A stretch of 57,004 bases of DNA from Candidatus Aenigmatarchaeota archaeon (GTDB lineage Archaea; Aenigmatarchaeota; Aenigmatarchaeia; QMZP01): positions 1-57,004 of the forward strand of contig WAQT01000010.1 of NCBI GenBank assembly GCA_015520105.1, given 5' to 3'. Shown in pieces: positions 35,717 to 55,896 of this stretch. The position numbers were made by a program, and so were the translations under genes. Position 1 is the stretch's first letter; the number at the start of each line of letters is the position of its first letter. A model generated the notes under the pieces. That model searched no databases and was not told the origin of the DNA. It saw only the letters and a program-made list of their open reading frames with translations.

Positions 35717-35748
35717 GAAATTTTAATAGCGCGCAGATAATCATAAGA

Positions 35749-36711: not shown

Positions 36712-37412
36712 AGCGGAGGAAATTTTTTCCAGTAAGAAGAGAACCTGTATTTGAATATGCATTTCAGATAGGACTTTCCAACCTTCCACCTGTTGAGCTT
36801 GGTCTCGCCTGCCCTTATTTTGTAAGGTATGGGTATCTCTTTGTGCCTGAATCCTGAGAGTTTGGACTTTATTATTATCTCGCAGGGAAGGGCATTGAAG
36901 TTCCTGCTGGCTTCCCACCTTATTCCGTGACCGACTTCCCTCCTCATGCATATCATTCCTGTGGATACGTCGTGAACATTTATTCCGTAAAGCAGTCTGA
37001 CCAGAAAAGCAAAGAGCCTGTTGCCGAACTTGTTGAACGAGGGCATCTGCTTCTTCAGCTCTCTGGTCATCCTGTTGCAGGTTATTATGTCGTATCCCCT
37101 TTCAATCAGGAACACAAGCCTTGGTATGTATTCCATTGGGTAGGTGTTGTCGCAGTCTGTAGTGATTATTATGTCGTTCCTGGCTGCGTAGATTGCCTCC
37201 TTGAGCGCTGCCCCGTGGCCCTGAGGCTTCTGCCATAACACGCGGGCTCCCCTTCCTCTTGCTATCTCGGCTGTCCTGTCAGTGCTGCTGTCCACTATCA
37301 CTATCTCGGTTTCGTAATCCTTTGTGTGCTTCCTTATGTCATCTATCATTTTTCCTATCGCTTCCTCCTCGTTGAAGCTTGCCATGACCACTGAAACGCT
37401 TGGCTTTTTCAT
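36702..37412 (-). CDS. GT2 glycosyltransferase (Dpm1/polyprenyl-phosphate sugar synthase-like, soluble)
   Basis: VSVVMASFNEEEAI...IVIVDSSTDRT...TTDCDNTY are GT-A DxD-type motifs. Confidence 0.7.
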   Translation of the reverse strand: MKKPSVSVVMASFNEEEAIGKMIDDIRKHTKDYETEIVIVDSSTDRTAEIARGRGARVLWQKPQGHGAALKEAIYAARNDIIITTDCDNTYPMEYIPRLVFLIERGYDIITCNRMTRELKKQMPSFNKFGNRLFAFLVRLLYGINVHDVSTGMICMRREVGHGIRWEASRNFNALPCEIIIKSKLSGFRHKEIPIPYKIRAGETKLNRWKVGKSYLKCIFKYRFSSYWKKFPPLQP

Positions 37413-38698
37413 GCTTCACCGTTCAGTTTTCTTGCGAGGCTGTATGCACGCTCAACCACAGCATCCATATTGAGGTATTCGAATTCCGCGAACCTGCCGC
37501 ATGAATGTATGCCCCGCGACGAGAGGTATTCCAAGACCATGTCCGTGTTCCTTCTGTGCTCCAGGTCGTAGATGACATAGGCGTACTCAAAGGACCGGAT
37601 TTCCGTTTTCAGGACATCCTCTTTTTTAACAATGCCCGTGGAATCAAGGCCTTCTATAACCGCCCGCTTTATTGATTCCCTGTCCATTCTTCCGATATGG
37701 CTCTCCTTTCTGTAAGTGATTTCAGCTATTATCACGCTTCCCTTTCCGGTTCTGTAGCTGTCTCCGAGGAAGCTGATTTTTGATATTCTGTGGAATATCA
37801 GTTTCTTGTCCGCGAACGTGGCCACGAAATTATCTCCCATGGAGTCATTTCTCGCGAGAACCGCGACTATGTGGATGGAGTTGTACTTGAGATTTCTCAG
37901 CGCGTTTCTCACCCTCGCTGGCACGTCATCGAGATAGTTGAAGAGTTCGTGAACCGGCATGCAGTTCACAATATCCTTTCCTTTGAAAGTTCCCCTGTCT
38001 GTCAGAACGCTCCAGCCGTCCTTTGACTTCTCTATCCTTTCTATCTCAACCGGGTTCACGATGTCCGCTTTTTGCCTCGCTGCGCTGCTGAATCTCTCTA
38101 TGACATGCTCTATTCCGCCACTCTTCGGATAATGGAAATAGAGCTGGTGCGTGTAGCCCTCGCTGGGTTTTCCGTTGGCGGAGTTTATTATGTCCTCCTT
38201 CGGGGGCTTGGGTATTCTTTCCACCATCTGGGTGTCCATAAAGGAGGGGTCGAACTTCCATATCTTTTCGTTGTAAGGCTGGAGGTAGAGCCTTGTTATA
38301 CCCTCGCCGAAGGTTTTGAGGAAGAACTGCAGCATGTTCTTCGCATCGTATTTCTCGTAGGGATTGTTCAGAAATTCGTTGAGGCAGTATTCCCTTTCAT
38401 CTTTGTCAAGGGCGTATAGATGGTTCTCAAAAGGATATTTGACGAACCTGTTCCTGTGGAAGATGACGTTTGACCTCCTTATCACATTCGTCTCCAGAAG
38501 CGAGGTTATCCTGTTCAGGGATTCCTTTTTTCTGGAAAAGAGTATATGCGGTCCTATGTCATATCTGACGCCGCAGAAGCTGAAGCTTCTGCACAGGCCT
38601 CCGATTCGCGCTTCCCTTTCAAGTATCGTTGACTTTTGTTTCAGATAATTCGCCAGAGAGAGGCCGGCAAGACCTGCTCCGAGTATGACGACAGACAT
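37409..38698 (-). CDS. FAD-dependent oxidoreductase (amine-oxidase / UDP-galactopyranose-mutase-like fold)
   Basis: N-terminal VVILGAGLAGLS dinucleotide motif. The C-terminal CGRFAEFEYLNMDAV is reminiscent of UGM/PPOX-like proteins. ATGA overlap with the downstream GT2. Confidence 0.55.
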   Translation of the reverse strand: MSVVILGAGLAGLSLANYLKQKSTILEREARIGGLCRSFSFCGVRYDIGPHILFSRKKESLNRITSLLETNVIRRSNVIFHRNRFVKYPFENHLYALDKDEREYCLNEFLNNPYEKYDAKNMLQFFLKTFGEGITRLYLQPYNEKIWKFDPSFMDTQMVERIPKPPKEDIINSANGKPSEGYTHQLYFHYPKSGGIEHVIERFSSAARQKADIVNPVEIERIEKSKDGWSVLTDRGTFKGKDIVNCMPVHELFNYLDDVPARVRNALRNLKYNSIHIVAVLARNDSMGDNFVATFADKKLIFHRISKISFLGDSYRTGKGSVIIAEITYRKESHIGRMDRESIKRAVIEGLDSTGIVKKEDVLKTEIRSFEYAYVIYDLEHRRNTDMVLEYLSSRGIHSCGRFAEFEYLNMDAVVERAYSLARKLNGEA

Positions 38699-41071: not shown

Positions 41072-41956
41072 ATGAGAGTGCTCGTGACCATACCGGCGTA
41101 CAACGAGGAAAGGACAATCGGTTCTGTTATAAAAGGGATTCACAAGGCAATGAGAAAGCGAAGATACAGGTACGAGATTCTTGTTGTTGACGACGGCTCA
41201 ACTGACGGGACAGCAGAGGCAGCGAGAAAGGCAGGAGCTGTTGTGCATTCGCACCCCTACAATTACGGCCTCGCAGAAACGTTCAGGACAGAGATGGAGA
41301 AGGTTCTGGAAAGGAAGGGAGACGTCATCGTTCACATAGACGCGGACGGACAGTACAGGGCAGAGGAGATTCCGAAACTGATAGAGCCCATAAGAAAGGG
41401 AGAAGCGGACCTTGTGCTTGGCTCGAGGTTCGCCGGGACTATAGAGGAAATGCCTTTCATAAAGAGGATGGGAAACAGGCTGTTTTCAAGGGTGATATCC
41501 GGCATAGCAAGAATAAAGGTGACGGATGCGCAGACAGGATTCAGGGCGTTCACGAGGGAGTTTGCAGAAAAGGTGAAGATAAAATCAAGGCACACTTACA
41601 CGCAGGAGATGATTATAAGGGCGGTGAGGGAGAAGTTCAGGGTCGCAGAGGTTCCTGTGTATTTCGGGAAAAGGAAGTCGGGAAGGAGCAGGCTTATCTC
41701 AAACCCCTTTGGTTACGCGGTAAGGGCGTGGATAAACATTTTCAGGGTGTACAGGGACTATGAACCCCTCAAGTTCTTTGGAGGAATAGGTCTTGCTTTC
41801 CTGACTGTTGGTTTTGTGTTTGGCCTCTATCTGACATATCTTTTCATTGTTCAGGGTTTCATCAACAAAACACCAACTCTTATACTTACGATGCTGCTCA
41901 TAACAACAGGCATTCAAATAATATTGTTCGGTTTTCTTGCAGACAAGGGAGAGTGA
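41072..41956 (+). CDS. GT2 polyprenyl-phosphate glycosyltransferase (ArnC/GtrB/DPM-like) with two C-terminal TM helices
   Basis: IPAYNEE...VVDDGSTDGT...DADGQY, plus C-terminal hydrophobic helices. Confidence 0.7.
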   Translation: MRVLVTIPAYNEERTIGSVIKGIHKAMRKRRYRYEILVVDDGSTDGTAEAARKAGAVVHSHPYNYGLAETFRTEMEKVLERKGDVIVHIDADGQYRAEEIPKLIEPIRKGEADLVLGSRFAGTIEEMPFIKRMGNRLFSRVISGIARIKVTDAQTGFRAFTREFAEKVKIKSRHTYTQEMIIRAVREKFRVAEVPVYFGKRKSGRSRLISNPFGYAVRAWINIFRVYRDYEPLKFFGGIGLAFLTVGFVFGLYLTYLFIVQGFINKTPTLILTMLLITTGIQIILFGFLADKGE

Positions 41957-42864
41957 GCATGAAAAACTCCGTTCTCAAGGCAGCAATAACTGTGATTCTG
42001 TTTTTGTTCATTGTGCTTGTGGCAAACCCGGAAAGGATATTGCTGCTTATTGGAAACGTGGACCTGAGAATGTTCGCGTTATCTCTTCTTGCGGTTCCTT
42101 TGGGAATTTGTGTAAGAGCGGTCAAGTGGAGGATTATATTGAAGGATGCAGGAATAGGCATCGGGTTCTTTGAATCTCTTAGGGCGGTGTTTATAGGGAT
42201 ATTCTACTCGCTCTTCACTCCTGCAAAGTCAGGGGAGCTTGCAAGGGCATACTATATAAGCGGGAGGAAATCGCGGATTATTCCGACAATAATATATGAC
42301 AGAGTAACTGATATAATCTCTCTGATTGTTGTTGCTTTTATTCTCTTGTTTGCGTTTCTTGGAAGCGGGTTCTTGTGGCTTCTTGCCGCTTTCACGGCAT
42401 GTTTTTTTGCTTCTCTGATTGCGTTTCTGAAGCTTAACGAAAGGGTGATGAACGTTTTTGAGAGGGTGTTTGGAATAGACGAGGATTCGAGAACAACGTT
42501 TTCAAGGGTTATAGCGGGGCTCTTCTCGAACCGGAGGCTTGCGTCAAAGAGTATAATGCTGTCCCTTCTTTTCTATACGATAATTTTTTCCTTTGCAGTT
42601 CCCATTCTGTTATCTCTTGATGCTGGGCTTAACCCTCTGCTTGTGTCTGCCATGCCGCTGGCAATACTTATAGGAAACATTCCTGTGACCATATCCGGCA
42701 TCGGGATGAGGGAATTTGTAACCGCGTTCTATTTTGAAAAGTTTGGCTATAGTTTCTCTCTTGGGTTCTCCTTCTCATTGCTGTGTTTTGTAGTGCTAAC
42801 ATTGATTCCCGGGGTCGTGGGGTATGCGTTTAGCGTTTTTGGTGGTTATCGTGTCAGGAAATGA
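41953..42864 (+). CDS. Flippase-like membrane protein (UPF0104 family)
   Basis: Polytopic protein with the motif PAKSGELARAYYI. ATGA-type overlap with the upstream GT2. Confidence 0.6.
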   Translation: MSMKNSVLKAAITVILFLFIVLVANPERILLLIGNVDLRMFALSLLAVPLGICVRAVKWRIILKDAGIGIGFFESLRAVFIGIFYSLFTPAKSGELARAYYISGRKSRIIPTIIYDRVTDIISLIVVAFILLFAFLGSGFLWLLAAFTACFFASLIAFLKLNERVMNVFERVFGIDEDSRTTFSRVIAGLFSNRRLASKSIMLSLLFYTIIFSFAVPILLSLDAGLNPLLVSAMPLAILIGNIPVTISGIGMREFVTAFYFEKFGYSFSLGFSFSLLCFVVLTLIPGVVGYAFSVFGGYRVRK

Positions 42865-43444
42865 AGGAAACTATTTCAACAAATATGAAAGCAGAAACCC
42901 CCTCATAAGGATTGCTCTCTCGAGATTCATGAAGGACCTTAGAAGATTTGTTTCGTCTCTGAACCCAGACAACGTTCTCGACGTGGGCTGCGGAGAGGGC
43001 TACATCGCTTCTTATATCAAGAGTTCGTTCCCTGAGATAGATATGGTGTGCTCCGATATATCAAAGGAATGTGTAAAGAAAGCGAGAAGTGCTTGCAGTA
43101 ATATGGGGTTTGCTATAAGCGACGGACGCTCTCTAGGATTCAGGAGCAAGAGCTTTGATTTGGTGATTTGTCTTGAGGTTCTAGAACATCTTGAGAGGCC
43201 GGAGAAAGTTGTCAAGGAACTTAGAAGGGTTTCTAGAAAAGGCGTGATTGTGAGCGTTCCGAATGAACCTTTGTGGAGAATCTCCAACATAGCAAGGCTT
43301 GCCTATCTTAAAGACATGGGAAACACTCCTGGACATATACAGCATTTTAACAAGAATAAACTGGGAACGCTTCTGGAAAGACATTTCAAAAAGATAGTTG
43401 TAAAGAAGTCATCGGTGTGGCTGTTCGCTTTATGTGAGTTGTGA
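42824..43444 (+). CDS. Class I SAM-dependent methyltransferase
   Basis: Motif I VLDVGCGEGY and post-I/II motifs. The start is uncertain (possible GTG at 42851). Confidence 0.65.
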   Translation: MRLAFLVVIVSGNEGNYFNKYESRNPLIRIALSRFMKDLRRFVSSLNPDNVLDVGCGEGYIASYIKSSFPEIDMVCSDISKECVKKARSACSNMGFAISDGRSLGFRSKSFDLVICLEVLEHLERPEKVVKELRRVSRKGVIVSVPNEPLWRISNIARLAYLKDMGNTPGHIQHFNKNKLGTLLERHFKKIVVKKSSVWLFALCEL

Positions 43445-45436
43445 TCACACAAGAAATATGTCGGTTTCGTTGTTATGAAACACCTTCCTAAAGAAGGGCT
43501 CGAAGCCGTTCCCTATGAACTCTCCGTATTTTCTTTTCTCCGAAGGACCAATATAGATGTAATCTATTCCGTACTCTTTAAGCGTTTCTATAGTGCTTTG
43601 CGTAACATTGTTTGTGTAAAGGTCATCCACAAGATTCTTAAGATTCGTGACGCTTTCGTTATCATAGAACCACATGCTTGCCCCGCCAATGAGAATCTTT
43701 CTTCCTGTGAACGCAGGTATCTTTCCGTAGGGGCCCACAAGATACTCGCTGCTCAGGAACACGGAATCCGGGTCTGTGCTGTTCCTTATCCATTCAAGCG
43801 CATCCCACTCCTGATAGGATATCGTGTCCTTGTCGCTGAGAACTACGTAATAGTATGCCGCAGTGTTTATGATGTTTGATGCGGAGAGAACGAGAATGAG
43901 CGGTACCAGAATCGCTCTTTTTCTGATTATGTTTTTCCTCTCAAGGAAGAGGGTGAAAGAAACTATCAGGGGAATGAACATCAGACGTATGGAATAGTTC
44001 CTTATTACAAATGCGGAGATAGGAATCGTCCTTGTCACAAAGAGCAAAGTTACTATCATAATCGATGCCATGAGGAGTATGAATTCCGTCTTCTTTTTTG
44101 CTGCAACATAGAAAAGGTTTGGAAGCCCTATAATGAACATTATGCCGAACATCATGGCAACCGGGAAAATGAGGTTTCCTTTAAAGAACGGGAGAATGGA
44201 AAATGACGGCGACACGGATTGGTGAAGGAGTGTAGTTTTTATGTAATAGGCGGCAAAGACTACTCCTGAGATGAGAAAGGAATCCACAAAATAGGCAAAT
44301 CTTGGCGCGTCAAAGCCCGAGAGGGTAGTTTTGATAACGAAATAAAGCAATGATGAAAGAAACAGTATGACGCCTGTCACAAAATGGGAAAGAAGAATGA
44401 TTGAGAACAGCAGGGAGAGAAGAATCCTGTTTCTGATGTCCGGTTTTTTGGAAAGCAGGAGATAAAGGAAAGGGAAGAGGAAGAGGGAATAGACGAATCC
44501 GGCAGACTGCGTGATTATGAGGTGGCCGAAGGGAAGGTTGTTCAGGTAGAGTATGTCGAGCGAGCATATGCCGATTGGGCACCTGAACATCTCGTTGTTG
44601 GAAAGCATAAAGGAAGGGAGAGAGGCAAGGCCGTGCTGAAGGTAGCCCAGCGCCTGCAGTGCAAGCAGGATTCCGCCAAAACCGCCTCCGAACACGAAGA
44701 GAAATGTCGCGAGGAGCGACGTTTTCTCCTTCAGGAAGTTTCTGAGGAAGAAGTAGCTCGACAGCACGAACCAAAGGGGAAGGAAGAGGGAGAGCATCTG
44801 GAGTATCTGGAAGAACCTGAGGTTGGTGAAATAGTGGAGAGCGAGCATGTAGACATGGAAGCCGTAGTGGTAGAACCTCGGCTGCTCGACGTTTCCAACA
44901 AACGGGTCGTGTATCGGAAGGTCTTTCTCTATCAGAAGCCTGTTGGCGTATGCCTGATGCATCCATGGGTCGTTGTCGAAATTCCCTCCGTAGCGGATTC
45001 CCTTATCGTCCGGGGTTCCGTTCAGGGCTGCAGGAACGGATATCGCAGCGAAGACCAGAAGCAGGATAAGGAGTAGGGTTCTTGGAAGCTTCTCCTTCTT
45101 GGATGGTTTTGAGAACCTGTGCCACGCAACGGAGGAGAAGGCAAACACGGCAAAAACAAGCAACGAGACAACCTGCCTTGTGAGAAGGACGTTGAGAACG
45201 CTGTTCAGCGTTATCAGGGGAACGACAAGAAGGGCCACTGATAGCGCAGGGGAGAACACAATCCTTGCGAACCTGCTCCTGAAGAAGGCAGAGGATATGA
45301 GGTAGCCGGGAAAGAACGTTGCGAGAGCGAAGCCTGCAAAATGCGGTATGGGAATCCCGAAGAGAATCAGGATGGGAGCAATCACAGACACTGCAAAAAA
45401 CAGAACTGTCTGATTCCTTCTGTTCTGCTTCTTCAT
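43445..45436 (-). CDS. Large polytopic membrane protein with a C-terminal soluble domain, possible divergent GT-C (STT3/AglB-like layout)
   Basis: 663 aa with at least 12 hydrophobic helices. There is an acidic loop motif NFDNDPWMH after the early helices and a C-terminal EWDALEWIRNSTDPDSVFLS block. No WWDYG motif. Confidence 0.4.
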   Translation of the reverse strand: MKKQNRRNQTVLFFAVSVIAPILILFGIPIPHFAGFALATFFPGYLISSAFFRSRFARIVFSPALSVALLVVPLITLNSVLNVLLTRQVVSLLVFAVFAFSSVAWHRFSKPSKKEKLPRTLLLILLLVFAAISVPAALNGTPDDKGIRYGGNFDNDPWMHQAYANRLLIEKDLPIHDPFVGNVEQPRFYHYGFHVYMLALHYFTNLRFFQILQMLSLFLPLWFVLSSYFFLRNFLKEKTSLLATFLFVFGGGFGGILLALQALGYLQHGLASLPSFMLSNNEMFRCPIGICSLDILYLNNLPFGHLIITQSAGFVYSLFLFPFLYLLLSKKPDIRNRILLSLLFSIILLSHFVTGVILFLSSLLYFVIKTTLSGFDAPRFAYFVDSFLISGVVFAAYYIKTTLLHQSVSPSFSILPFFKGNLIFPVAMMFGIMFIIGLPNLFYVAAKKKTEFILLMASIMIVTLLFVTRTIPISAFVIRNYSIRLMFIPLIVSFTLFLERKNIIRKRAILVPLILVLSASNIINTAAYYYVVLSDKDTISYQEWDALEWIRNSTDPDSVFLSSEYLVGPYGKIPAFTGRKILIGGASMWFYDNESVTNLKNLVDDLYTNNVTQSTIETLKEYGIDYIYIGPSEKRKYGEFIGNGFEPFFRKVFHNNETDIFLV

Positions 45437-45512: not shown

Positions 45513-47189
45513 ATGAAAATTCTCGGGATAAGCTATGCCCATGATTCAGGAGCGTGCGTGATAGAGAACGGAAGGATTCTTTCAAGCATAAACGAGGAGA
45601 GGCTGGCGAAGATAAAGATGAAGGGAGGGCCTCCACTGCTTTCCATAAAGGAGGCGCTCAGGGTAGCCGGAACGAAGCCTGAGAGTATAGGGCTTGTCGC
45701 TTTTGCAGACCTCAGGCCGAGGGATTTCGCGAGGAGGACGTATCCCCTTGTGGCCAGAAGAGTCCTGAGAGGCCTTGTGAGGTTTCCGGGAATAAGGACA
45801 ACAAGAACCAAGAGGAGGAATCTCGGGATTATAAGGAGATTTCTCGAGAGCATCGGCGTGAATGCCGAGGAGAAGTTTGTGGAGCATCACCTCTGCCACG
45901 CAGCGAGCGCGTATTACACGTCAGGGTTTGAGGAGTGCCTTGCAGTGACTTCCGACGGGGAGGGAGATTCCGTGTCCTCAACAGTCAGCGTGTGCAGGGA
46001 CAGCGAGATACACAGGGTTGCATCAACAGACGTCTATCACTCCGCAGGAATGTTCTATTCTTCTGTCACCAATGCGCTGGGATTCAGGATAAACAGGCAT
46101 GAGGGAAAGATAGTGGGCCTCGCTGCATACGGCAATCCTGACAGGGTTTACGGAGAGATCAAAGACCTGCTGACCCTGAACAAGGAGGAGCTGAGAATAG
46201 AAGGCAGGATAGCGAAGTGGTACGTGAAATACGGATGGAGAAGGGTTCCGGATGAACTGAGAAGAATATGCGAAAGAAACAAAAGGGAGGATGTCGCGGC
46301 AGCTTTCCAGAAGAGGCTCGAGGACGTGCTGTCAGGTCTCGTGGACGCTGCTGCAAGGAGGTTCGGTCTGAGAAGGGTTGCTCTTGCCGGAGGGGTGTTC
46401 GCGAACGTAAAACTGAACCAGAGAATCCACGAGCTTGAGAGTGTGGATGAGGTTTTTGTGCACCCGGCAATGAGCGACGCGGGTCTTCATCTCGGAGCCG
46501 CGCTGTACGCGAGCGCGGAACTGGAAAGGGAAGGCGCGGTGAAGGGAACCCTTCAGAGGCTCGGCCACGTCTATCTCGGACCAGAATATTCTGACAGGGA
46601 AATCGAGAAGGCGCTGCAGGGGAAGGGACTGGAGTACGAGAAACATAGAAACATAGAAAGGGAGACTGCCTCTCTTATTTCCGAGGGAAAGGTGGTAGCG
46701 AGGTTTAACGGAAGGATGGAGTACGGGCCGCGGGCTTTGGGAAACAGGAGCATTCTCGCTCTTCCGACAGACCCTTCGATAAACGACTGGCTGAACAAAA
46801 GGTTGAAGAGGACGGAGTTCATGCCGTTCGCTCCCTCCATATTAAGGGAGCATGCAGCGGAGTTTTACAAGGGAATAGAGGGAGCGGAGCACACCGCGGA
46901 GTTCATGACCATAACGTTCGACTCCACAGAGAAGGGATGGAAGGAAGCTCCGGCAGTTGTTCACGTGGACAGGACAGCGAGGCCCCAGTTCGTTCCCAGG
47001 AACGTTAATCCGAGCTACAGGAGGATAATAGAGGAAGTCCATGGCATGACAGGGCTGCCTGTCATTCTCAACACGTCCTTCAATATGCACGAAGCCCCGA
47101 TTGTGTGCAGCCCGGAGGATGCAGTAAACTCGTTTCTGCAGGGCCATCTGGACGCGCTGTCAATAGGAAGGTTTCTGGTCAGGGCTTGA
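45513..47189 (+). CDS. Carbamoyltransferase (NodU/CmcH family)
   Basis: MKILGISYAHDSGACVIENGRI...NEERL at the N-terminus. 558 aa, with the C-terminal NTSFN motif. Confidence 0.75.
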   Translation: MKILGISYAHDSGACVIENGRILSSINEERLAKIKMKGGPPLLSIKEALRVAGTKPESIGLVAFADLRPRDFARRTYPLVARRVLRGLVRFPGIRTTRTKRRNLGIIRRFLESIGVNAEEKFVEHHLCHAASAYYTSGFEECLAVTSDGEGDSVSSTVSVCRDSEIHRVASTDVYHSAGMFYSSVTNALGFRINRHEGKIVGLAAYGNPDRVYGEIKDLLTLNKEELRIEGRIAKWYVKYGWRRVPDELRRICERNKREDVAAAFQKRLEDVLSGLVDAAARRFGLRRVALAGGVFANVKLNQRIHELESVDEVFVHPAMSDAGLHLGAALYASAELEREGAVKGTLQRLGHVYLGPEYSDREIEKALQGKGLEYEKHRNIERETASLISEGKVVARFNGRMEYGPRALGNRSILALPTDPSINDWLNKRLKRTEFMPFAPSILREHAAEFYKGIEGAEHTAEFMTITFDSTEKGWKEAPAVVHVDRTARPQFVPRNVNPSYRRIIEEVHGMTGLPVILNTSFNMHEAPIVCSPEDAVNSFLQGHLDALSIGRFLVRA

Positions 47190-48993: not shown

Positions 48994-49908
48994 TCATTCG
49001 ATGTTCCTTATGTAATGCCTCGCGGCCTTTCTCACAGCCGCCTCGGAGTCAAGCTTTGGTTCCCATCCAAGGGATTTAAGCCGCGATGTGTCAAGAAGCA
49101 TTACCGGAACGTCTCCCTTCCATCCCCTGTCCCCGCCAGTGAAAGCGAATTCCGGGGCAACGTCCATCTCCTCGCACACTATCTCCGCTATCCTTTTCAC
49201 CTTTATCTGCGTTTCGGAACCGACGTTGAATATCTGAAATCCCTTTGTTTCGCGAAAGCCTGTGAGCATTCCGTTTATCGTGTCCTCCACATCAAGGTAT
49301 GACTTGTTCTGCTCGCCGTTTCCAAGAATCTCCAGACGATTGGGGTTTCTTTTCAGCTTCCTGACGAAGTCGAAGACCACGCCGTGATCTGAGCCTTCGC
49401 CTATTATGTTTGCGAGCCTGAATATCCACGCATTCATTCCGAATGTGTGGTGGTAGGAAGACAGGAGCGCCTCGCATGAGAGTTTTGACGCTCCGTATAC
49501 TGATATGGGCTGGAGGGGAGAGTAGTCTTCTGGTGTGGGGATGACTCTGGCCTCTCCGTAGACAGCGGAGGTGGACGTGAACACGATGTTCTTCGCTCCG
49601 GAAGAACGCATCGACTCAAGGAGGCGGAACGTGGCGAGTATGTTCTGATTGATGTCCCTTTCCGGACTCTTCTCTCCCGACCTTATGTCCCTGTTCGCAG
49701 CAAGATGGAACACGGTTTCCACTCCGTCGAGCAGGTTGGAAAGATTATCTGTCAGAAGGTCTGCCCTGACAAATTCTATGTTTTCGTGTTTGAGAGGATT
49801 GTTTCCGGACGAGAGGTTGTCGACCACTCTAACGCGGTGCCCCTCGCCCGCAAGCCTTTCTGCCAGATGGGAGCCTATGAATCCCGCGCCTCCTGTGACA
49901 AGCATCAT
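48994..49908 (-). CDS. NAD-dependent epimerase/dehydratase (SDR)
   Basis: LVTGGAGFIGSHL, TSTSAVYG and YGASK motifs. Confidence 0.7.
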   Translation of the reverse strand: MMLVTGGAGFIGSHLAERLAGEGHRVRVVDNLSSGNNPLKHENIEFVRADLLTDNLSNLLDGVETVFHLAANRDIRSGEKSPERDINQNILATFRLLESMRSSGAKNIVFTSTSAVYGEARVIPTPEDYSPLQPISVYGASKLSCEALLSSYHHTFGMNAWIFRLANIIGEGSDHGVVFDFVRKLKRNPNRLEILGNGEQNKSYLDVEDTINGMLTGFRETKGFQIFNVGSETQIKVKRIAEIVCEEMDVAPEFAFTGGDRGWKGDVPVMLLDTSRLKSLGWEPKLDSEAAVRKAARHYIRNIE

Positions 49909-50792
49909 CTTCTCGCCTCGGCCTCCAGATAGCTCTTTAACATATCAAGGTTCCTGAAATAAATAGAGTATGCAAGAACCGGTATGAGCAGTGCAGCGTG
50001 CGCGATTGCGTGCTTCAGGAGTTTCAGCGCGCTTCCGTTGTATACGTTCTTCCTGAAGAACCTTTTCTGGTTCACAAGCTGGTAGTACTTCAGTCTGGGA
50101 AGGGATTCCCTTTTCACAGGAGAAACAAGATGCCTGACAACGCAGTCCGGAACGGCGTAGAGGGAAAAGCCTTTCCGCAGGACGCGATAGCTGTAGTCTG
50201 CATCCTCGTAGTAGGCGTTTCCTATAAACCCTGTGTCAAAGAAGCCGGTCTTCTCTATCGCTTCCCTCCTGTAGGCCATGTTGCAGCCGCTAAGCCACTC
50301 CACAGGAACGGTTTTCTCCACCCTGTCGAAGTTCGATGCGGTGAAGCCTGTGTCAAGAACTTTTCCTATGCCGCTGCAGTTGGCGAAGAACCCGCTTATT
50401 CCGAACGCATGGGCATAGAATCCCATCAGTTTTCCGAGCATTCCCTGTTTATTGGTTTCCCTGTTTTCCTCTGTTATTTTCCCTGTCAGGCCGCCGGCGT
50501 CCGGAAGCCTTGCGAATGCCTTGAGCATGTTTTTTATGTAATCCCTGTGAACAACAGTATCGTCGTCGAAGAAAACCACTATATCGGAGTCCGTGTTCCT
50601 GATGGCAGCGTTTCTTGCGTCAGGAAGACCCTTTCCTTTCTGGACAATCGTTCTGGCCTGACGGAGATTCAGAGGTTTTCTGGATACTATAACAATCTCG
50701 TCAGGCTTCCTGCTCTGGTTTATGAGGGATTCGAGGCACTGACCGAGTTCCTTCTCCCTTGCAAGGGTGCATATAACCGCAGAGACTTTCAT
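49905..50792 (-). CDS. GT2 glycosyltransferase
   Basis: From the ATG at 50792: MKVSAVICTLAREKEL...FFDDDTVV. The longer ORF-track N-terminus overlaps the divergent UbiA gene and looks non-coding. Confidence 0.65.
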   Translation of the reverse strand: MKVSAVICTLAREKELGQCLESLINQSRKPDEIVIVSRKPLNLRQARTIVQKGKGLPDARNAAIRNTDSDIVVFFDDDTVVHRDYIKNMLKAFARLPDAGGLTGKITEENRETNKQGMLGKLMGFYAHAFGISGFFANCSGIGKVLDTGFTASNFDRVEKTVPVEWLSGCNMAYRREAIEKTGFFDTGFIGNAYYEDADYSYRVLRKGFSLYAVPDCVVRHLVSPVKRESLPRLKYYQLVNQKRFFRKNVYNGSALKLLKHAIAHAALLIPVLAYSIYFRNLDMLKSYLEAEARR

Positions 50793-50835
50793 CACAACCA
50801 CGCGATTTTTAAAGAGAACGCATTGTTTAATAAAC

Positions 50836-51693
50836 ATGAAAAAGTATCTTAAGCTTTTGCGCATGCAGCAGTGGTACAAGAACGTGGTGGTCTTCATTCC
50901 CCTCTTCTTCTCGCTTAATGCGATGAACCCTTACATGCTGATGCTTTGCGCCGGAGGGTTTGCCGCGCTCTCTCTTATGTCATCATGCTATTACATACTC
51001 AATGACCTGAAGGATGCAGAGGAGGACAGAAGGCACCCGGAGAAGAGGAAGAGGCCTGTGGCGTCCGGAGAGGTGTCAAAGAAGGCAGCATTTGCTGTCG
51101 CCGCGGCGCTGTTCGCTGCATCGATATCGCTTTCCTATGCGCTGAATCCGGCGTTTGCTGTATTTCCTTTGTTGCTTCTGCTTGTGACCATGTTTTATAC
51201 GTTCAGGCTCAGGAATGTAGCGATAGTGGACATACACGCAATATCCGTTAATTTTCTGATAAGAACAGTGTCCGGAGCGGTTCTGATAGGAGTGAGCATC
51301 TCTCCGTGGCTTGTGATAACGATATTCCTCCTGGCTCTTGTGCTGGCCTCTGGAAAGAGAAGGGCCGAGCTTGAGTTTCTTGGAAAGCATGCGGAGAAAC
51401 ACAGGCCTGTTTACAGGGTTTACACGGGACATCTCCTGGATGCGTTTCTCATGGTTTCGGTCTCCCTCCTCCTGATGTCGTACACGCTCTACACATTTAT
51501 AGCGCATCCGGAAGGTTATCTTGTCTTCACTCTTCCTGTTGCGACGTTTCTGCTTTTCAGGTATATGTATTTTGCGGTTTCCGGAGGCAGGGAGGGAAGG
51601 TCTGCGGAGCATGTATTGAGAGACCCGCAGATGGTTGCCGGAATAGCTGTATGGGTTGCAGCAGTGTTTCTTGGCCTGTATGTGATTGCATGA
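50836..51693 (+). CDS. UbiA-family prenyl-phosphate phosphoribosyltransferase (decaprenyl-phosphate 5-phosphoribosyltransferase / DPPR-synthase-like)
   Basis: LRMQQWYKNVVVF, YILNDLKDAEEDRRHPEKRKRPVASG, FLIRTVSGAV and GKRRAEL parallel the motifs I recall from mycobacterial Rv3806c (RPRQWVKN; NDVRDVEADREHPTKRFRPIAAG; GKRYAEL). Confidence 0.7.
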   Translation: MKKYLKLLRMQQWYKNVVVFIPLFFSLNAMNPYMLMLCAGGFAALSLMSSCYYILNDLKDAEEDRRHPEKRKRPVASGEVSKKAAFAVAAALFAASISLSYALNPAFAVFPLLLLLVTMFYTFRLRNVAIVDIHAISVNFLIRTVSGAVLIGVSISPWLVITIFLLALVLASGKRRAELEFLGKHAEKHRPVYRVYTGHLLDAFLMVSVSLLLMSYTLYTFIAHPEGYLVFTLPVATFLLFRYMYFAVSGGREGRSAEHVLRDPQMVAGIAVWVAAVFLGLYVIA

Positions 51694-52556
51694 GAGTGGT
51701 TGTCGGTTTCGACTCCTTCGGGAGGGAGATTGCGGAAAGGCTTTCATCAGGGTTTGTCAGGATTGAGAGGAGGGTGTTCCCTGACGGCGAGGCGTGCCCG
51801 AGAATAGAGGGAGAAACAGAAGGGAAACACGCGGTTTTCGTGAACAGGATTTCGCAGGGCATGAATGTGAACACATATATCATCGAGAGCGTTCTTGTTC
51901 TAAGAACATTGAGGGAGAGCGGAGCGAAAAGCATTGATTTTGTGATGCCGTACATGGCGTATTCGAGGCAGGCAAAGGCTTACAGGGCAGGGGAACCGCA
52001 ATCTGCGAAGTTTGTGCTGGACGTTTTCAGGGATGCAGGAGCGTCGAGAATATTCACAGTGTCGTCGCATTACGAGAGGGATAAGGAGGTTATTCCTTCC
52101 TCCGTTCCTGTTCGCAACATAAACGGCTTCAGGGCTGTTGCGGAATATGCAAAGAGCATTGAGGCAAAGAATCCTGTTGTTGCCGGCCCGGACCTCGGCG
52201 TGTCATCGGAAGCGAAGCGTGTCGCCGAGTTGTGCGGTTACGAGTGCCTGATAATGGAGAAGGAGAGGCGCGCAGAAGGCGTTGAGGTTAAAGGAAGCCC
52301 GGACGTCGAGGGAAAGGATGTTATTCTGGTTGATGACATAATAAGCACCGGAAGCACTATGATGAAGGCGGCCGGTCTTTGCAGGAAGAACGGAGCGCGC
52401 TCTGTTCACGCCGCAGCGGTTCACGGAGTCTTTGCATCCCGCTCTTTGGAGAGGATGAGAAGCGTATTTGACAGCATTGCTGTCTCGGACAGCATAGAAA
52501 CTCCTGTGTCTCTGATAAGGGTTTCGGGCCTTATTGCCGAAGGGATTGGGGATTAA
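51690..52556 (+). CDS. prs: Ribose-phosphate pyrophosphokinase (PRPP synthase)
   Basis: FPDGE, MPYMAYSRQ and VDDIISTGST motifs. The ATG overlaps the UbiA stop (ATGA at 51690..51693). Confidence 0.75.
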   Translation: MRVVVGFDSFGREIAERLSSGFVRIERRVFPDGEACPRIEGETEGKHAVFVNRISQGMNVNTYIIESVLVLRTLRESGAKSIDFVMPYMAYSRQAKAYRAGEPQSAKFVLDVFRDAGASRIFTVSSHYERDKEVIPSSVPVRNINGFRAVAEYAKSIEAKNPVVAGPDLGVSSEAKRVAELCGYECLIMEKERRAEGVEVKGSPDVEGKDVILVDDIISTGSTMMKAAGLCRKNGARSVHAAAVHGVFASRSLERMRSVFDSIAVSDSIETPVSLIRVSGLIAEGIGD

Positions 52557-52565
52557 TGGCCGGGA

Positions 52566-53654
52566 TCAGTATCTCCGGAACATCTTTCCCCATTCCGTCT
52601 TCATGAACTGCTTTATCATTCTCCTTCCTGCTGTCGGATACCAGAAGTAGTCGTGATAGAACGCGCTCCCGAACACCGCGAGCTTGAAAAGACCTGTTCT
52701 GAATACAAGCCTTTCAAGAAAGGAATGCTTCTTTCTGAAGAGCTGGTCGAAGTATATGACAGGGCTCCTTCTGGTTGAGAAGCGGAAGTTTATTTTATTG
52801 AACTCGCTTCTTGGCATTCCTGCTATCTCTATCTGGTCTATGTCGCCTGTCCCAAGACCCCTGTCGTGGGCCTGTTTTATAAACGGTATTTTCATTGGCT
52901 CGAATCCCATCATCTTTGCGCTCACAGCGTCTATGGCAACCTGGTCCGCTGAAGCAAGGATTATGTTCTTTATCTCCGGCGTCATGGTCCTTGGGCCTGC
53001 TCCGTTGCCGCACACTGTTCCGTCCATCACAGCGAACATTCCGGGATGTATCTCCTTCTGTATGGCCAGAAGGTCTACTATCACTTCGTGTATCATCCTG
53101 TGCGAGTGGTGGCGCCTCTCTGTTATGAGGCCTCCGAATGCGTTCTTTATAGCGCCGGTGATTGTTGTGTGGCCGTGCGTCTTAACTGTCGGAAGGTGGA
53201 TTACGTTCTTTCCGATAAACATCACCGGTATCTTCAGGCCGTCAGGAAATATATGGGGTATCGCAACCATCTCGGACTTCGGCTCGTAAACCTCCCATTT
53301 CGCTTCTGTGAGCGGTTCGTATTTCTGCCCGTATTTCCTCAGGACAGGCAGCCATCTGTTGTTCAGCGCGCCTTTCCACACGTTCGTGACCACGGTCTTG
53401 TTCTCCACGAAATGCAGATTCCTGTAACCGTCGTCCAGAAGCTTCTTCATGCAGCCCTCAAGCTGCCAGGGCTCGGTGGAGCATGCGGGATAGTAGAGAG
53501 ACCACGAGAGGTTGAGTTTCACCACGGTCTCGATGCTCTTCTTTATGTGCTTTGTGTACTCCGCAAGCGTCATCAGTTTTGCATAATCTTCTATAACCGT
53601 TTCAGGCCTTGTCCTGAGAACGGACACTATGCTCTCTCCTGCCATCGTAATCAT
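52566..53654 (-). CDS. DUF362-domain protein
   Basis: 362 aa with the general DUF362 layout as I recall it. The start may be 53645. Confidence 0.45.
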   Translation of the reverse strand: MITMAGESIVSVLRTRPETVIEDYAKLMTLAEYTKHIKKSIETVVKLNLSWSLYYPACSTEPWQLEGCMKKLLDDGYRNLHFVENKTVVTNVWKGALNNRWLPVLRKYGQKYEPLTEAKWEVYEPKSEMVAIPHIFPDGLKIPVMFIGKNVIHLPTVKTHGHTTITGAIKNAFGGLITERRHHSHRMIHEVIVDLLAIQKEIHPGMFAVMDGTVCGNGAGPRTMTPEIKNIILASADQVAIDAVSAKMMGFEPMKIPFIKQAHDRGLGTGDIDQIEIAGMPRSEFNKINFRFSTRRSPVIYFDQLFRKKHSFLERLVFRTGLFKLAVFGSAFYHDYFWYPTAGRRMIKQFMKTEWGKMFRRY

Positions 53655-53659
53655 TTTGA

Positions 53660-54646
53660 ATGAAATTTATAAAACGTTTCGCAACAACGTTGTATATGCG
53701 AGCGGGCGGGAAGGGGTCTGCATCAAGGGTGTGGTACGTTGTTTTTGCATCTGTTGCTGTATATGCGGTGATGCTCGCACTGAGCGATTTCTCAGGTTTA
53801 TCTGAGATTTTCCTCTCATGGAGCACGGTATCTGCTGTTCTTCTGCTGGCTTTCGGAAACTATCTGCTCAGGGCAGCAAGGTTCCATTACTATATAAAGG
53901 CTGCTGGCGCAGAGGTTCCGCTTCGGAAATCCCTTCTGGTATTTTTCAGCGGAATGCTCATGACAATCACGCCAGGAAAGATAGGGGAAGTGTGGAAGTC
54001 GCACATGCTCAAGAAAAGCGATGGCATAAGGATAAGAAGAACAGTTCCTGCGGTGTTCTCCGAAAGACTGAGCGATGTTATTGGAGTGATTGCGATAGCG
54101 GTCGTGTCTTCTTACGCGTTTGTTGGAGAAGCGCTGTCCCTGAGCGCCTCTGTTGCATTCGTGTCTCTGATTGCGCTTGCGGTATACAGCAGGAGGGTGT
54201 ACAGGGGAATGAGAGGAATTGCCATGAGAATCGGCGTGCTGAGGAAGCATATCCAAAAGATTGACGACGTGTACGAGGGAGTAAGAAGCATCAATTCTCC
54301 CTTAAAGCTTGCTGTCTCAGTGATTCTGAGCATTGCTGCGTGGTCTCTTGAGTGCATTGCGCTCTGGATGATAGTTGCGGATATCGGATACCCGATTCCT
54401 CTGGGAATTGCATTTTTTGTCTATTCTGCCTCAAGCCTGACAGGCTCTCTTTCCACATCGCCCGGAGGGATAGGGGTGACCGAGGGGGGAATGTATCTGA
54501 TGCTTATCGGTTTCGGTCTAGGCAGTGCAGCGGCATCAGTATCCGTGATAGCTGTAAGATTTGCAACGCTCTGGTTTGCAATAGCATGCGCTGCTGTATC
54601 GCTGTGGGTGTTCAGGAAGATTTACGGGGTCAGTGCATGGAAATGA
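53660..54646 (+). CDS. Flippase-like membrane protein (UPF0104 family)
   Basis: Polytopic protein with the motif TPGKIGEVWKSHML at the position equivalent to the other two copies. Confidence 0.55.
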   Translation: MKFIKRFATTLYMRAGGKGSASRVWYVVFASVAVYAVMLALSDFSGLSEIFLSWSTVSAVLLLAFGNYLLRAARFHYYIKAAGAEVPLRKSLLVFFSGMLMTITPGKIGEVWKSHMLKKSDGIRIRRTVPAVFSERLSDVIGVIAIAVVSSYAFVGEALSLSASVAFVSLIALAVYSRRVYRGMRGIAMRIGVLRKHIQKIDDVYEGVRSINSPLKLAVSVILSIAAWSLECIALWMIVADIGYPIPLGIAFFVYSASSLTGSLSTSPGGIGVTEGGMYLMLIGFGLGSAAASVSVIAVRFATLWFAIACAAVSLWVFRKIYGVSAWK

Positions 54647-55896
54647 AAAGAAAGCGCGTGGTGTTTCTGGCTGTTGTTATATTGCTTGCAGCTCTCAGGA
54701 TAGCCGCATCCTTCGGGTATTTCATTCACACAGAGGGAGATGACAAGACATGGTATTTTCTCGGTGACAGGACGCTCAGAGCCTATGGGCTTGAAGACCC
54801 GATGAGCGATGAGATGAAGGGGTTTTATGCAAGGTATTACAGCGATGAGATATTCAGAAAGGTTTCATACATGCCTGTTCTGTGGTATTTCATGGCGCTT
54901 CTTGTCAAGGCTTCAGGAAGCAGTTACAGGGTTTTTGATGCCCTCTTCGTAATCATTCTGAACGTCGCGGACGTCATAGCGTTTGTTTTTCTCTACAAGA
55001 TTCTCAGGTCCAAGAGGGTTTCCGAGAACGCCGCGTTTGCGCTTGCGGTGGCATATTTCATGAATCCCGTGACCCTGAACAGCCTCAAATGGAGGCAGAT
55101 GAACGGGATATCCGTGATGTTTCTGGTTCTTTCTGTTCATCTCTATTCCAGAAGAAAGGAGGTGAAGTCCTCGCTGGCGTTCGGGTTCAGTTATATCTCG
55201 AAGCTCATAGCAGCTTACCTGATTCCTGTCTTTTTAATTAAGGCTGCGAGAAACAGGAAGGCGCTGTTTTCGATTTTTGCTGTTCCTCTGATTGGCAGCG
55301 CTGCCTACATAGCAAGTTCGCGCTTTGATTTTGGCGGGAATCTTGCTTTCGGCAGCGGGATATCCCCCGGGGACCCGTGGAACCTTTCGTTCTCCGGGCT
55401 CCTTGCGCTTTTTGGCATTGGGTCTCCCGCAGTCTCCTATGCGTTCCTGTGCGCGACGTTCCTCTTTCTCTTGCTCTCCTATTTCGTGTTCAGGAAGGAA
55501 AGTATGGAGTCGCTTGTTTTTGTCGTGATGTCAGTGTATTTCCTGTTTGCTAACCTGATAGAGATTCATCACATAGTGTTTCTTTATGCCGCTGTTATAA
55601 TGAACTGGGATAGGCATCCTTTCATAAGGAAAATGTTTCCGCTCTATCTTCTTGTTCCTCTGGGGTGGTTCCTCGGAACGCCTGACGGCTTCGGAACGCG
55701 GATGCTTTCAGCGTTCGGAATAACATGGACGCACTTCATTGAGGCTAAAGCTTTCACCATAATCGCATTCAAGGCAGTGATAGTCCTTGGCCTGCTTCCG
55801 TACATAAGGGGGATTGACAGGAACGCTCTTATTGGGGATATAAAGGGAGCGCTGTCCGTCATCAGGCGTTGTATAGCGCTTCGAGCTTCTTTATAA
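54643..55896 (+). CDS. Polytopic membrane protein, putative GT-C-type glycosyltransferase
   Basis: From the ATG at 54643 (ATGA overlap with the upstream stop): MKRKRVVFLAVVILLAAL..., about 417 aa with at least 9 hydrophobic helices. Confidence 0.45.
   Translation: MKRKRVVFLAVVILLAALRIAASFGYFIHTEGDDKTWYFLGDRTLRAYGLEDPMSDEMKGFYARYYSDEIFRKVSYMPVLWYFMALLVKASGSSYRVFDALFVIILNVADVIAFVFLYKILRSKRVSENAAFALAVAYFMNPVTLNSLKWRQMNGISVMFLVLSVHLYSRRKEVKSSLAFGFSYISKLIAAYLIPVFLIKAARNRKALFSIFAVPLIGSAAYIASSRFDFGGNLAFGSGISPGDPWNLSFSGLLALFGIGSPAVSYAFLCATFLFLLLSYFVFRKESMESLVFVVMSVYFLFANLIEIHHIVFLYAAVIMNWDRHPFIRKMFPLYLLVPLGWFLGTPDGFGTRMLSAFGITWTHFIEAKAFTIIAFKAVIVLGLLPYIRGIDRNALIGDIKGALSVIRRCIALRASL

Follow-up and report, generated by a model that had tools for sequence, protein, structure and literature searches.

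A candidate lipid-linked pentofuranose glycosylation cluster around a UbiA-fold phosphoribosyltransferase-like protein in an Aenigmatarchaeota archaeon

Lipid-carried pentofuranose donors have been described in mycobacteria and serve there as drug targets. The mycobacterial decaprenyl-phosphate arabinose (DPA) pathway comprises the UbiA-fold enzyme Rv3806c (the decaprenyl-phosphate 5-phosphoribosyltransferase, DPPRS), the PAP2 phosphatase Rv3807c, the 2'-epimerase pair DprE1/DprE2 (an FAD_binding_4 oxidase and an SDR reductase), Rv3789 and arabinosyltransferases of the GT-C type. Since 2024 such donors have also been known from Gram-negative O antigens (PMC11127046). The bacterial paradigm, in which a polyprenyl-phosphate 5-phosphoribosyltransferase (PPPRS) acts together with a phosphatase, a flippase, a GT-C glycosyltransferase and an optional epimerase, is experimentally established (PMC11127046). 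In the three-component system of Citrobacter youngae O1/O2, ORF15 is a PPPRS with a HAD phosphatase domain, and it is accompanied by a MATE flippase, a GT-C enzyme of family GT136 and an optional epimerase of the short-chain dehydrogenase/reductase (SDR) family, ORF13 (PMC11127046). Full-text literature searches returned no paper treating archaeal homologs or tying lipid-linked pentofuranose donors to archaea. Here we describe a gene cluster at positions 50836-55896 of a 57,004-nucleotide stretch of DNA (contig WAQT01000010.1; the window, by which we mean the whole stretch analysed) from an Aenigmatarchaeota archaeon. The cluster, whose central gene encodes a UbiA-fold protein, is probably an archaeal version of a lipid-linked pentofuranose glycosylation route. 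The gene order around it is SDR< GT2< UbiA> prs> DUF362< LPG_synthase_TM> GT87-like>, where arrowheads give the direction of transcription.

The UbiA-fold protein and its coupling to prs

The UbiA-fold gene (50836..51693, + strand) starts with ATG and encodes a protein of 285 residues with a Pfam UbiA match of 82.8 bits. The initial annotation of this DNA had proposed that the product resembles DPPR synthases rather than the archaeal digeranylgeranylglyceryl phosphate (DGGGP) synthase, and sequence, profile and structure searches all point to Rv3806c. The NCBIfam DPPRS equivalog model NF008977 scored 221.8 bits, compared with 29-34 bits for DGGGP synthase models and 54 bits for the best UbiA model outside the phosphoribosyltransferases (PRTases). 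A sequence search of the PDB returned Rv3806c (8j8j) at an E-value of 1.7e-32 and AfUbiA at 2.7e-3, and a profile of 40 mostly archaeal relatives scored 197.7 bits on Rv3806c, 60.6 on AfUbiA and 38 on the Methanocaldococcus jannaschii DGGGP synthase. An AlphaFold2 (AF2) model of the protein (pLDDT 94.7) matched 8j8j in Foldseek with an E-value of 6.9e-12, a TM-score of 0.86 and 29% identity over the structural alignment, while the other UbiA structures (AfUbiA, DGGGP synthase, ApUbiA) gave TM-scores of 0.61-0.74. The protein shares at most 51% identity with its relatives. In a neighbour-joining tree, drawn without bootstrap values, it groups with sequences from Altiarchaeota, Aenigmatarchaeota and Parvarchaeota; Rv3806c and a DprE1-linked DPPRS of Chryseobacterium nest inside the archaeal diversity, and the outgroups AfUbiA and the M. 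jannaschii DGGGP synthase lie far off on a long branch. Placement by profile models and by tree thus puts the protein with the Rv3806c type and not with DGGGP synthases or quinone prenyltransferases. Some archaeal homologs are already called DPPR synthases by NCBI automatic naming.

To compare the predicted active site, the roles of Rv3806c residues were taken from the published structural work (PMC10994848) and their positions were transferred through a HMMER alignment, which covered 11 residues that contact phosphoribosyl pyrophosphate (PRPP) or decaprenyl phosphate, among them contacts to pyrophosphate, Mg2+, ribose and 5-phosphate. Eight of these are identical in the window protein (R22=R9, K28=K15, Y70=Y53, N73=N56, D77=D60, K87=K70, R90=R73 and Y138=Y121, Rv3806c numbering first), and two are changed conservatively (K143 to R126 and Y157 to F140). 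The phosphoribose contacts of Rv3806c are not common to the prenyl-transferring UbiA enzymes (PMC10994848). Two of the three 5-phosphate contacts, K28 and Y70, are identical, and the third, Y157, is a phenylalanine, a residue that occurs at this position in some mycobacteria (PMC10994848). The three motifs that had been named as diagnostic are all present, as R9-MQ-QWYKN16, N56-DLKDAEEDRRHPEKRKRPVASG and G173-KRRAEL. The NDxxD aspartates and the KRxxE motif are counterparts, matched by motif and not by alignment to ORF15, of the residues chosen by Kelly et al. for alanine substitution in the C. youngae PPPRS (PMC11127046). A Pfam scan over the 285 residues detected no extra domain such as a fused phosphatase. 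Based on these comparisons the product is a candidate polyprenyl-phosphate 5-phosphoribosyltransferase of the Rv3806c type (PPPRS/DPPRS clade), predicted to be an all-helical polytopic membrane protein.

Directly downstream on the same strand lies prs (51690..52556, +), which encodes a 288-residue protein. Its ATG (51690-51692, read in GTGATTGCATGAGAGTGG) overlaps the UbiA stop codon TGA (51691-51693), and the ATGA junction reported earlier was confirmed at base level in the stretch GCATGAGAG. Further four-nucleotide overlaps between stops and starts of same-strand genes occur at 37409/37412, 41953/41956, 47898/47901 and 49905/49908. Since such overlaps are ordinary in this genome, the UbiA/prs overlap indicates co-transcription and possible translational coupling but is nothing unusual in itself. 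The operon is short, being bounded by the convergent DUF362 gene with 9 bp between the two stops. An A/T-rich TATA-like box, ATTTTTAAAG (50806..50815, +), was read from the sequence about 25 nt 5' of the UbiA ATG, inside the 43-bp intergenic region between the divergent GT2 and UbiA genes; if it serves as a promoter, its placement suggests a leaderless UbiA-prs transcript. The region was recovered in hydrothermal-vent DNA metagenomes only, and no RNA sequencing runs containing it were found.

By sequence the prs product is a ribose-phosphate diphosphokinase (PRPP synthase) of the archaeal class III type, although a divergent one. It matches the Pfam families Pribosyltran_N, Pribosyltran and Pribosyl_synth, scores 222.2 bits on TIGR01251 (cut-off 113) and 215.9 bits on the archaeal equivalog NF002095, which is under the cut-off of 296. 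It aligns end to end with its best PDB matches, the archaeal structures 4twb, 3lpn and 1u9y. With its complete two-domain architecture and the VDDIISTGST binding loop it looks functional, in agreement with the identity first assigned to it. The nearest relatives (35-43% identity) are likewise sub-threshold on NF002095, at 183-232 bits compared with 310-335 bits for canonical archaeal Prs proteins, so the divergence looks typical of the lineage rather than specific to a paralog. The closest relatives for which genomic context was available (P0244 and P0245; 34-35% identity) sit among unrelated genes.

Conserved partners of the synthase and the proposed route

To evaluate the neighbourhood of the synthase, 80 loci from a pattern scan of GTDB representative genomes and one Altiarchaeota locus were collected, giving 69 archaeal and 12 bacterial loci. 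The archaeal set covers Woese-, Nano-, Alti-, Micr- and Aenigmatarchaeota, Methanosarcinales, Methanothrix, Methanobacterium, Methanolobus, Thor- and Hermodarchaeota, Thermococcus, Thermoprotei and Nitrosopelagicus. Partners were defined by unbiased clustering of the open reading frames (ORFs) within 4 kb of UbiA, iterated searches, and Pfam and NCBIfam annotation of representatives; counts give the number of archaeal loci, out of 69, in which the partner is no more than 5 kb from UbiA, and many of these loci lie on short contigs. DUF362 was the most frequent partner (30/69, adjacent in 21), followed by GT-C proteins, mostly PMT_2 (25/69, 8 adjacent), a PHP metallo-phosphoesterase of about 210 residues (23/69; 18 adjacent, mostly directly downstream), LPG_synthase_TM (18/69, 3 adjacent), Amino_oxidase-type flavoproteins (9/69, 6 adjacent) and small ArnE/ArnF-like EamA proteins (8/69, 2 adjacent). 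At least one of these partners was present in 55 of the archaeal loci, and the partners cluster near UbiA: DUF362 was found within 5 kb in 30 loci and solely beyond 5 kb in one, even though 42% of the sampled bases lie beyond. DprE1 and prs were found in none of the 69, whether adjacent or within 5 kb. A DprE1 search seeded from the Chryseobacterium neighbour identified the protein in 7 of the 12 bacterial loci, in no archaeal locus and not in the window; conversely, DUF362, PHP and LPG_synthase_TM were absent from all 12 bacterial loci.

The archaeal neighbourhoods are of recurrent types. Thor- and Hermodarchaeota show the order DUF362>UbiA>PHP>LPG_synthase_TM, and Methanobacterium and Methanothrix show UbiA>PHP>LPG_synthase_TM>DUF362>PMT_2. 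A haloarchaeal genome paper lists a PHP protein, a DPPR synthase and a NAD epimerase side by side (PMC4866403), the PHP-DPPRS pair occurring in Haloarcula or Halanaeroarchaeum strains. Cultured organisms with the cassette include Methanobacterium oryzae DSM 11106 (L053) and Methanolobus bombayensis DSM 7082 (L067). A second type, SDR<AmOx<UbiA> together with ArnE/F-like genes in pairs, was seen in some of the Woese- and Nanoarchaeia. The cassette in the window is of the first type (DUF362/LPG_synthase_TM), with prs in the slot directly downstream of UbiA that PHP takes in 18 relatives. Neither DUF362 nor, in relatives, PHP had been mentioned in the initial annotation, which had instead stressed the pairing of UbiA with prs. 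Conservation of that pairing was not borne out: none of the 69 archaeal and 12 bacterial loci has a prs closer than about 10 kb to UbiA, and an iterated search seeded with the window Prs recovered no UbiA-adjacent copy outside the window and three further assemblies of this organism. Lack of conserved linkage is one of the two findings that the initial annotation had named, in combination, as counting against it. The prs coupling is a lineage-specific addition and most simply serves to secure PRPP supply. The idea that the Prs-like protein has taken over the role of PHP was dropped, as the architecture and binding loop of Prs are complete and there is no sign of another activity.

In four of the Woesearchaeota/Nanoarchaeia loci (L020, L023, L028 and L042, at about 8500-12000) we observed an extended SDR, two or three small ArnE/ArnF-like membrane proteins and, directly upstream of UbiA, an Amino_oxidase-type flavin adenine dinucleotide (FAD) protein. 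This flavoprotein and SDR could be a non-orthologous analogue of DprE1/DprE2.

Downstream of the operon, the window encodes a flippase-like membrane protein of the LPG_synthase_TM family (53660..54646, +; PF03706 153 bits, TIGR00374 86.7 bits), for which an alternative start at 53696 would give 316 residues. Scores against UbiA-adjacent homologs of other archaea were 130-159 bits, and those against the two window paralogs were 43-46 bits. The protein is therefore orthologous to the UbiA-linked ones elsewhere and belongs to a subfamily inherited together with the synthase. No MATE, SMR or GtrA flippase gene lies next to UbiA in the window, and by analogy the LPG_synthase_TM protein is a candidate flippase for the lipid-linked pentose. 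Its stop codon, as read from the sequence, is overlapped by the start of a gene (54637..55896, +) for a 419-residue GT87-like protein, a polytopic glycosyltransferase candidate of the GT-C type. This protein matches PF09594 (GT87; 36.8 bits, cut-off 25) and PIG-U (27.1 bits), has multiple hydrophobic segments and has no sequence relative in the PDB.

The DUF362 gene (52566..53654, - strand; Pfam PF04015, 85.2 bits) encodes a protein of 359-362 residues. Among 8,000 scored candidates, all of which passed E<=1e-5, the best 119 share 64-72% identity with it across phyla, and 117 alignment columns are invariant. These include a His/Lys-rich segment, HLPTVKTHGHTTITGAIKNAFGGLITERRHHSH (K158-x-H160-G-H162...K170...H182-H183-x-H185). 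The C-terminus forms an aromatic/basic helical tail with no transmembrane segment, and taken together these sequence features would fit a cofactor-dependent enzyme at the membrane surface. An AF2 model (pLDDT 84) was compared with the PDB using Foldseek. The top ten matches (E 1.8e-6 to 3.9e-4, probability 1.00) were nine LarA-family racemases or LarA-like nickel-pincer-nucleotide enzymes and 4nar, an uncharacterised Thermotoga structural-genomics protein that we take to be a LarA homolog; TM-scores to the LarA-family proteins were only 0.37-0.44. Neither single-sequence nor profile searches of the PDB matched LarA, and a permissive Pfam scan gave only DUF362, so the link to LarA is one of fold and clan only, DUF362 and the LarA N-terminal domain sharing Pfam clan CL0471 (PMC11770544). 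DUF362 H160, K170 and H185 resemble LarA H174, K184 and H200 in spacing only, no residue-level alignment having been obtained, and no LarB, LarC or LarE was seen among the annotated ORFs of the window. The hydride-shuttle inversion of a secondary alcohol by LarA is the net chemistry of DprE1/DprE2. DUF362 is a candidate modifying enzyme, perhaps an epimerase, for the lipid-linked pentose. The idea that it is the missing phosphatase was dropped, since PHP and DUF362 co-occur in 17 loci and are therefore not alternatives.

A further DUF362 homolog (66% identity) was observed on a 1.8-Mb archaeal contig (L090, 6588-11553), flanked on one side by GtrA, GT2 and STT3/AglB genes and on the other by NadC (quinolinate phosphoribosyltransferase), a NAD_synthase-family protein and a UbiA gene. 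The presence of nicotinate-nucleotide genes beside a LarA-fold protein may be coincidence or may hint at a niacin-derived cofactor.

From what was observed of the genes, namely their identities, operon structure and conserved neighbourhoods, and of the synthase, namely its clade and retained ligand residues, we infer the following route. PRPP made by Prs would be used by the UbiA-fold PRTase to put ribose-5-phosphate on a polyprenyl phosphate acceptor. The 5-phosphate would then be removed, in relatives probably by the PHP phosphoesterase whose gene lies immediately downstream of UbiA; for the present genome, the enzyme would be encoded outside the window or be absent. The resulting lipid-linked ribofuranose may be epimerised, with the LarA-fold DUF362 protein as the best candidate for this step. 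The LPG_synthase_TM protein would carry the donor across the membrane, and outside the cell the GT87-like GT-C enzyme would add the pentofuranose, which may be ribofuranose (Ribf), arabinofuranose (Araf) or xylofuranose (Xylf), to an envelope glycan or glycoprotein. The pentofuranose donor pathway of the initial annotation thus stays the best reading of the cluster by virtue of the UbiA clade and the flippase-like and GT-C genes beside it; a conserved prs linkage and a DprE1 homolog were looked for and not found. A broader proposal is that many archaeal phyla (DPANN, Asgard, methanogens, Thermococcus, Thaumarchaeota and haloarchaea) share a lipid-linked pentofuranose system with a core of UbiA synthase, PHP and LPG_synthase_TM, in which DUF362 alone would epimerise the lipid-linked sugar to an arabino- or xylofuranose donor by hydride shuttling; this we regard as unlikely, though well above negligible.

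Several results weigh against the pentofuranose route. The NF008977 score of 221.8 bits is 12 bits under the curated cut-off of 234, and two other DPPRS models scored 166 and 141 bits, both under their cut-offs; the relative clade placement is, on sequence comparison, unambiguous despite these scores. Rv3806c Q135, which contacts ribose O3, is replaced by T118. A dedicated search detected no PHP homolog anywhere in the window, and no HAD or PAP2 phosphatase was found near UbiA, as judged only from Pfam matches of annotated ORFs, which leaves the window with no match to the 5'-phosphoribose phosphatase of the three-component system. That stand-alone LPG_synthase_TM proteins act as flippases is an assumption based on the analogy of MprF. 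The GT87 match is modest, and none of the other loci has a homolog of this type of GT-C. A flippase-like and a GT-C gene occur together within 5 kb in only 8 of the 69 archaeal loci, so that the full cassette is not universal, and two of three sampled DUF362 homologs have no UbiA nearby.

These points bear unequally on the competing explanations. It is hardly credible that the UbiA-fold protein acts as an ordinary prenyltransferase, for instance of the DGGGP synthase, quinone or haem type. Its superfamily membership and weak matches to such models would allow it, but those models reach 29-54 bits against 222 for DPPRS, the profile of relatives gives 38 bits on the M. jannaschii DGGGP synthase against 198 on Rv3806c, the TM-scores are 0.69-0.70 against 0.86 for 8j8j, PRTase-specific 5-phosphate and pyrophosphate contacts are retained, and a long branch splits off the outgroups. 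A phosphoribosylated lipid might also not be a glycan donor at all and instead belong to the making of a membrane lipid or cofactor, as an intermediate or as the finished product, such as an isoprenoid lipid with a phosphoribosyl head group. The window shows no recognisable 5'-phosphatase, and several relatives have a UbiA gene with no recognisable GT-C or flippase within reach. We nevertheless consider this explanation improbable, as a glycan locus of more than 20 kb surrounds the gene, the stop of the flanking flippase-like gene overlaps the GT-C start, such partners recur in relatives, and every characterised member of the clade makes glycosyl donors.

The remaining alternatives concern parts of the cluster. 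There is nearly an even chance that the juxtaposition of UbiA and prs has no pathway meaning, prs being the sole housekeeping PRPP synthase gene and having landed there by chance. The lack of prs near UbiA in all 81 related loci, the unrelated surroundings of the closest Prs relatives, the lineage-typical divergence seen in the NF002095 scores and the routine occurrence of four-nucleotide overlaps all favour chance. Set against them are the position of prs in the exact slot of a pathway gene, PHP, in 18 relatives, the short operon that it shares with UbiA and that ends at a convergent gene, and the functional sense of co-expressing the enzyme that makes the predicted co-substrate; even in the absence of any other prs copy, the assignment of the UbiA enzyme and the remaining cassette would stand. 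It is also conceivable, although we do not favour it, that the pathway ends at lipid-linked ribofuranose and that DUF362 serves another modification, regulation or scaffolding, or an unrelated redox step. The bacterial prototype C. youngae O1 transfers Ribf with no epimerase (PMC11127046), and the missing LarB, LarC and LarE in the window, the lack of a LarA link by sequence, the low TM-scores and the two of three sampled DUF362 homologs with no UbiA nearby point the same way. This explanation must, however, accommodate a protein that is the commonest neighbour of archaeal PPPRS genes, that is so strongly constrained across phyla among its best 119 of 8,000 candidates, and whose ten significant fold matches, 4nar being counted as a LarA homolog, are all hydride-shuttling racemases or epimerases of secondary alcohols, matching the net reaction of DprE1/DprE2.

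The surrounding glycan locus

The window is a segment of archaeal chromosome with the markers class I LysRS, PCNA, aTrm56, class V FBPase and deoxyhypusine synthase, and its glycan locus spans from about 32.5 kb to the window end. Pfam and NCBIfam annotation agrees with the glycan-locus setting described earlier, with GT-C-like and flippase-like proteins, an FAD oxidoreductase and SDRs. The GT-C-like proteins are a PMT_2 protein (34319-35716), a 663-residue polytopic protein (43445-45436) and the GT87-like protein of the UbiA cluster; three LPG_synthase_TM flippase-like proteins, the FAD protein (37409-38698) and three extended SDRs complete the set.

A GT2 glycosyltransferase (49905-50792, -) and a GalE-like extended SDR (48994-49908, -; GGAGFIG and YGASK motifs), each with Pfam and NCBIfam matches, form a divergent two-gene unit with a four-nucleotide overlap upstream of UbiA. 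They are possible accessory genes, for example an acceptor glycan glycosyltransferase and a C3/C4 epimerase, although the link to the UbiA module is weak. Homologs of this SDR are not consistently linked to UbiA elsewhere; by analogy it could in principle, two genes from UbiA, have a role like that of ORF13, the C3 epimerase of C. youngae O2. The earlier suggestion of DprE2-like SDR epimerases found little in its favour, as the three SDRs of the window are GalE-like or TviC-like extended SDRs with no consistent UbiA linkage and no DprE1/DprE2 pair was found.

The same applies to the FAD protein as a DprE1 counterpart. Its fold is Amino_oxidase/NAD_binding_8/GLF-like with a weak resemblance to UDP-galactopyranose mutase (UGM), and not FAD_binding_4. 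It lies 12 kb from the UbiA module, its stop lies in an ATGA shared with the start codon of a GT2 gene (36702-37412, -), and it shares only 24-27% identity with the UbiA-adjacent flavoproteins of Woesearchaeota. It was dropped as a DprE1 analogue on these grounds of fold, coupling to another module and distance from the UbiA-linked flavoproteins. The module to which this UGM-like flavoprotein (37409-38698, -) belongs, 34319-38698, further contains the PMT_2 GT-C gene (34319-35716, +), an LPG_synthase_TM gene (about 35614-36711, +) and the GT2 gene. Coupling of the flavoprotein to the GT2 suggests that a nucleotide sugar modified by a flavoenzyme, a furanose for instance, is the source of a lipid-linked sugar. 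A 295-residue ORF in this stretch (36064-36951, -) was rejected as spurious, being of low complexity, with an abundance of Arg, Lys, Gln and Asn residues and no homologs. It masks the LPG_synthase_TM (+) and GT2 (-) genes, and naive longest-ORF calling mis-annotates the stretch.

Another module (41072-45436) consists of a GT2 gene (41072-41956), an LPG_synthase_TM gene (41953-42864) that overlaps it by four nucleotides, a methyltransferase gene (42824-43444) and the gene for the 663-residue protein (43445-45436, -), which has at least 12 hydrophobic segments, no Pfam match and a weak chlor_Arch_YYY match and may be an unclassified GT-C-like enzyme. Together with the UbiA cluster, the three modules share a layout of lipid-sugar synthase, LPG_synthase_TM and GT-C-like protein, and this repeated layout lends internal support to the flippase-like assignment.

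Other features of the window were noted. A carbamoyltransferase gene (Carbam_trans_N/C; 45513-47189) with methyltransferase genes on either side lies inside the glycan locus and suggests carbamoylated or methylated glycan sugars. In another assembly of the same organism (L001, 16338-18887), past the 3' end of the window, a further GT4 gene is followed by an rve-family integrase/transposase with HTH domains, and a mobile element may mark the edge of the glycan island; an apparent difference between this assembly and the window in the GT4 gene proved to be merely a 100-N scaffold gap. The segment 22001-24000 has a GC content of 0.40 compared with about 0.50 elsewhere and coincides with an AAA_14/DUF4143 ATPase gene (22725-23969), a stretch that may be foreign or mobile DNA. 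A second AAA_14/DUF4143 gene (30230-31459) sits beside DUF123 and 8-oxoguanine glycosylase genes. A HepT-like ribonuclease toxin gene (9604-10146) was observed among housekeeping genes, together with an ORF (9066-9497) with no family match.

Comparison with known systems

The census indicates that the synthase is widespread in archaea and travels with accessory genes non-orthologous to the bacterial ones. As far as sequence comparison goes, the archaeal cassette is a variant of the bacterial three-component system, with a synthase of the same clade and non-orthologous accessory parts, and its distribution suggests a widespread archaeal decoration of the cell surface with five-carbon sugars. 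The prs coupling itself is real but minor and lineage-specific. Of most interest is DUF362, a protein of no known function whose conservation across archaeal phyla is strong; if the proposal holds, it would replace the two-protein DprE1/DprE2 system and gain a first function, and the LarA fold would gain its first lipid-linked sugar substrate. The cassette thereby raises hypotheses about the identity of the archaeal envelope pentose, the enzyme that removes the 5-phosphate, the epimerisation of a lipid-linked sugar by a LarA-fold protein, and stand-alone LPG_synthase_TM proteins as general archaeal flippases for lipid-linked monosaccharides.

Compared with the mycobacterial DPA pathway, the first enzyme is homologous (29% identity, TM-score 0.86, eight of 11 ligand residues identical and two conservative), and the predicted logic is the same: PRPP is converted to lipid-phosphate-ribose-5-phosphate, followed by dephosphorylation, optional epimerisation, flipping and use by GT-C enzymes. 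The remainder differs. DprE1 (FAD_binding_4) is missing from the window and from the 69 archaeal loci, and no equivalent of DprE2 or of the PAP2 phosphatase was identified. The candidate phosphatase of archaeal relatives is a PHP metallo-phosphoesterase, and the candidate flippase is LPG_synthase_TM or, in some DPANN, an ArnE/F-like protein. The archaeal cassettes have the LarA-fold DUF362 protein as an extra partner, and in this lineage only they carry prs in the operon. The archaeal lipid carrier would be of the dolichyl type rather than decaprenyl.

The three-component system of C. youngae is similar in its same-clade PPPRS with the catalytic Asp, Arg and Glu motif residues and in having genes for a flippase-type membrane protein and a candidate GT-C together, and the GalE-like SDR two genes from the window UbiA could play an ORF13-like role. 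Unlike in the prototype, a phosphatase is neither fused to the synthase nor found in the window, the predicted flippase is LPG_synthase_TM instead of MATE, the match of the candidate GT-C is to GT87, the host is an archaeon, and there is a DUF362 partner, of which the bacterial systems have no counterpart.

The LarA superfamily of nickel-pincer-nucleotide racemases and epimerases provides the only significant PDB fold matches of the DUF362 model and belongs to a common Pfam clan. LarA inverts a secondary alcohol through a transient ketone with hydride transfer to its cofactor, and the conversion of ribose to arabinose or xylose would need the same chemistry. In contrast to this likeness, DUF362 has no sequence match to LarA, its TM-scores are about 0.4, and LarA R75, H108, H174, K184 and H200 are unmapped in it; known LarA substrates are 2-hydroxy acids and not lipid-linked sugars, and LarB, LarC and LarE were not seen in the window. 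A last comparison is offered by the GtrA/GtrB/Gtr* systems and the archaeal and eukaryotic dolichyl-phosphate-hexose systems, which combine a GT2 synthase, a flippase and a GT-C enzyme. The window modules 34319-38698 and 41072-45436 are GT2-based in this manner and have the same LPG_synthase_TM and GT-C-like layout as the UbiA module, whose donor synthase, in contrast, would be a PRPP-dependent UbiA-fold enzyme rather than a nucleotide-sugar-dependent GT2.

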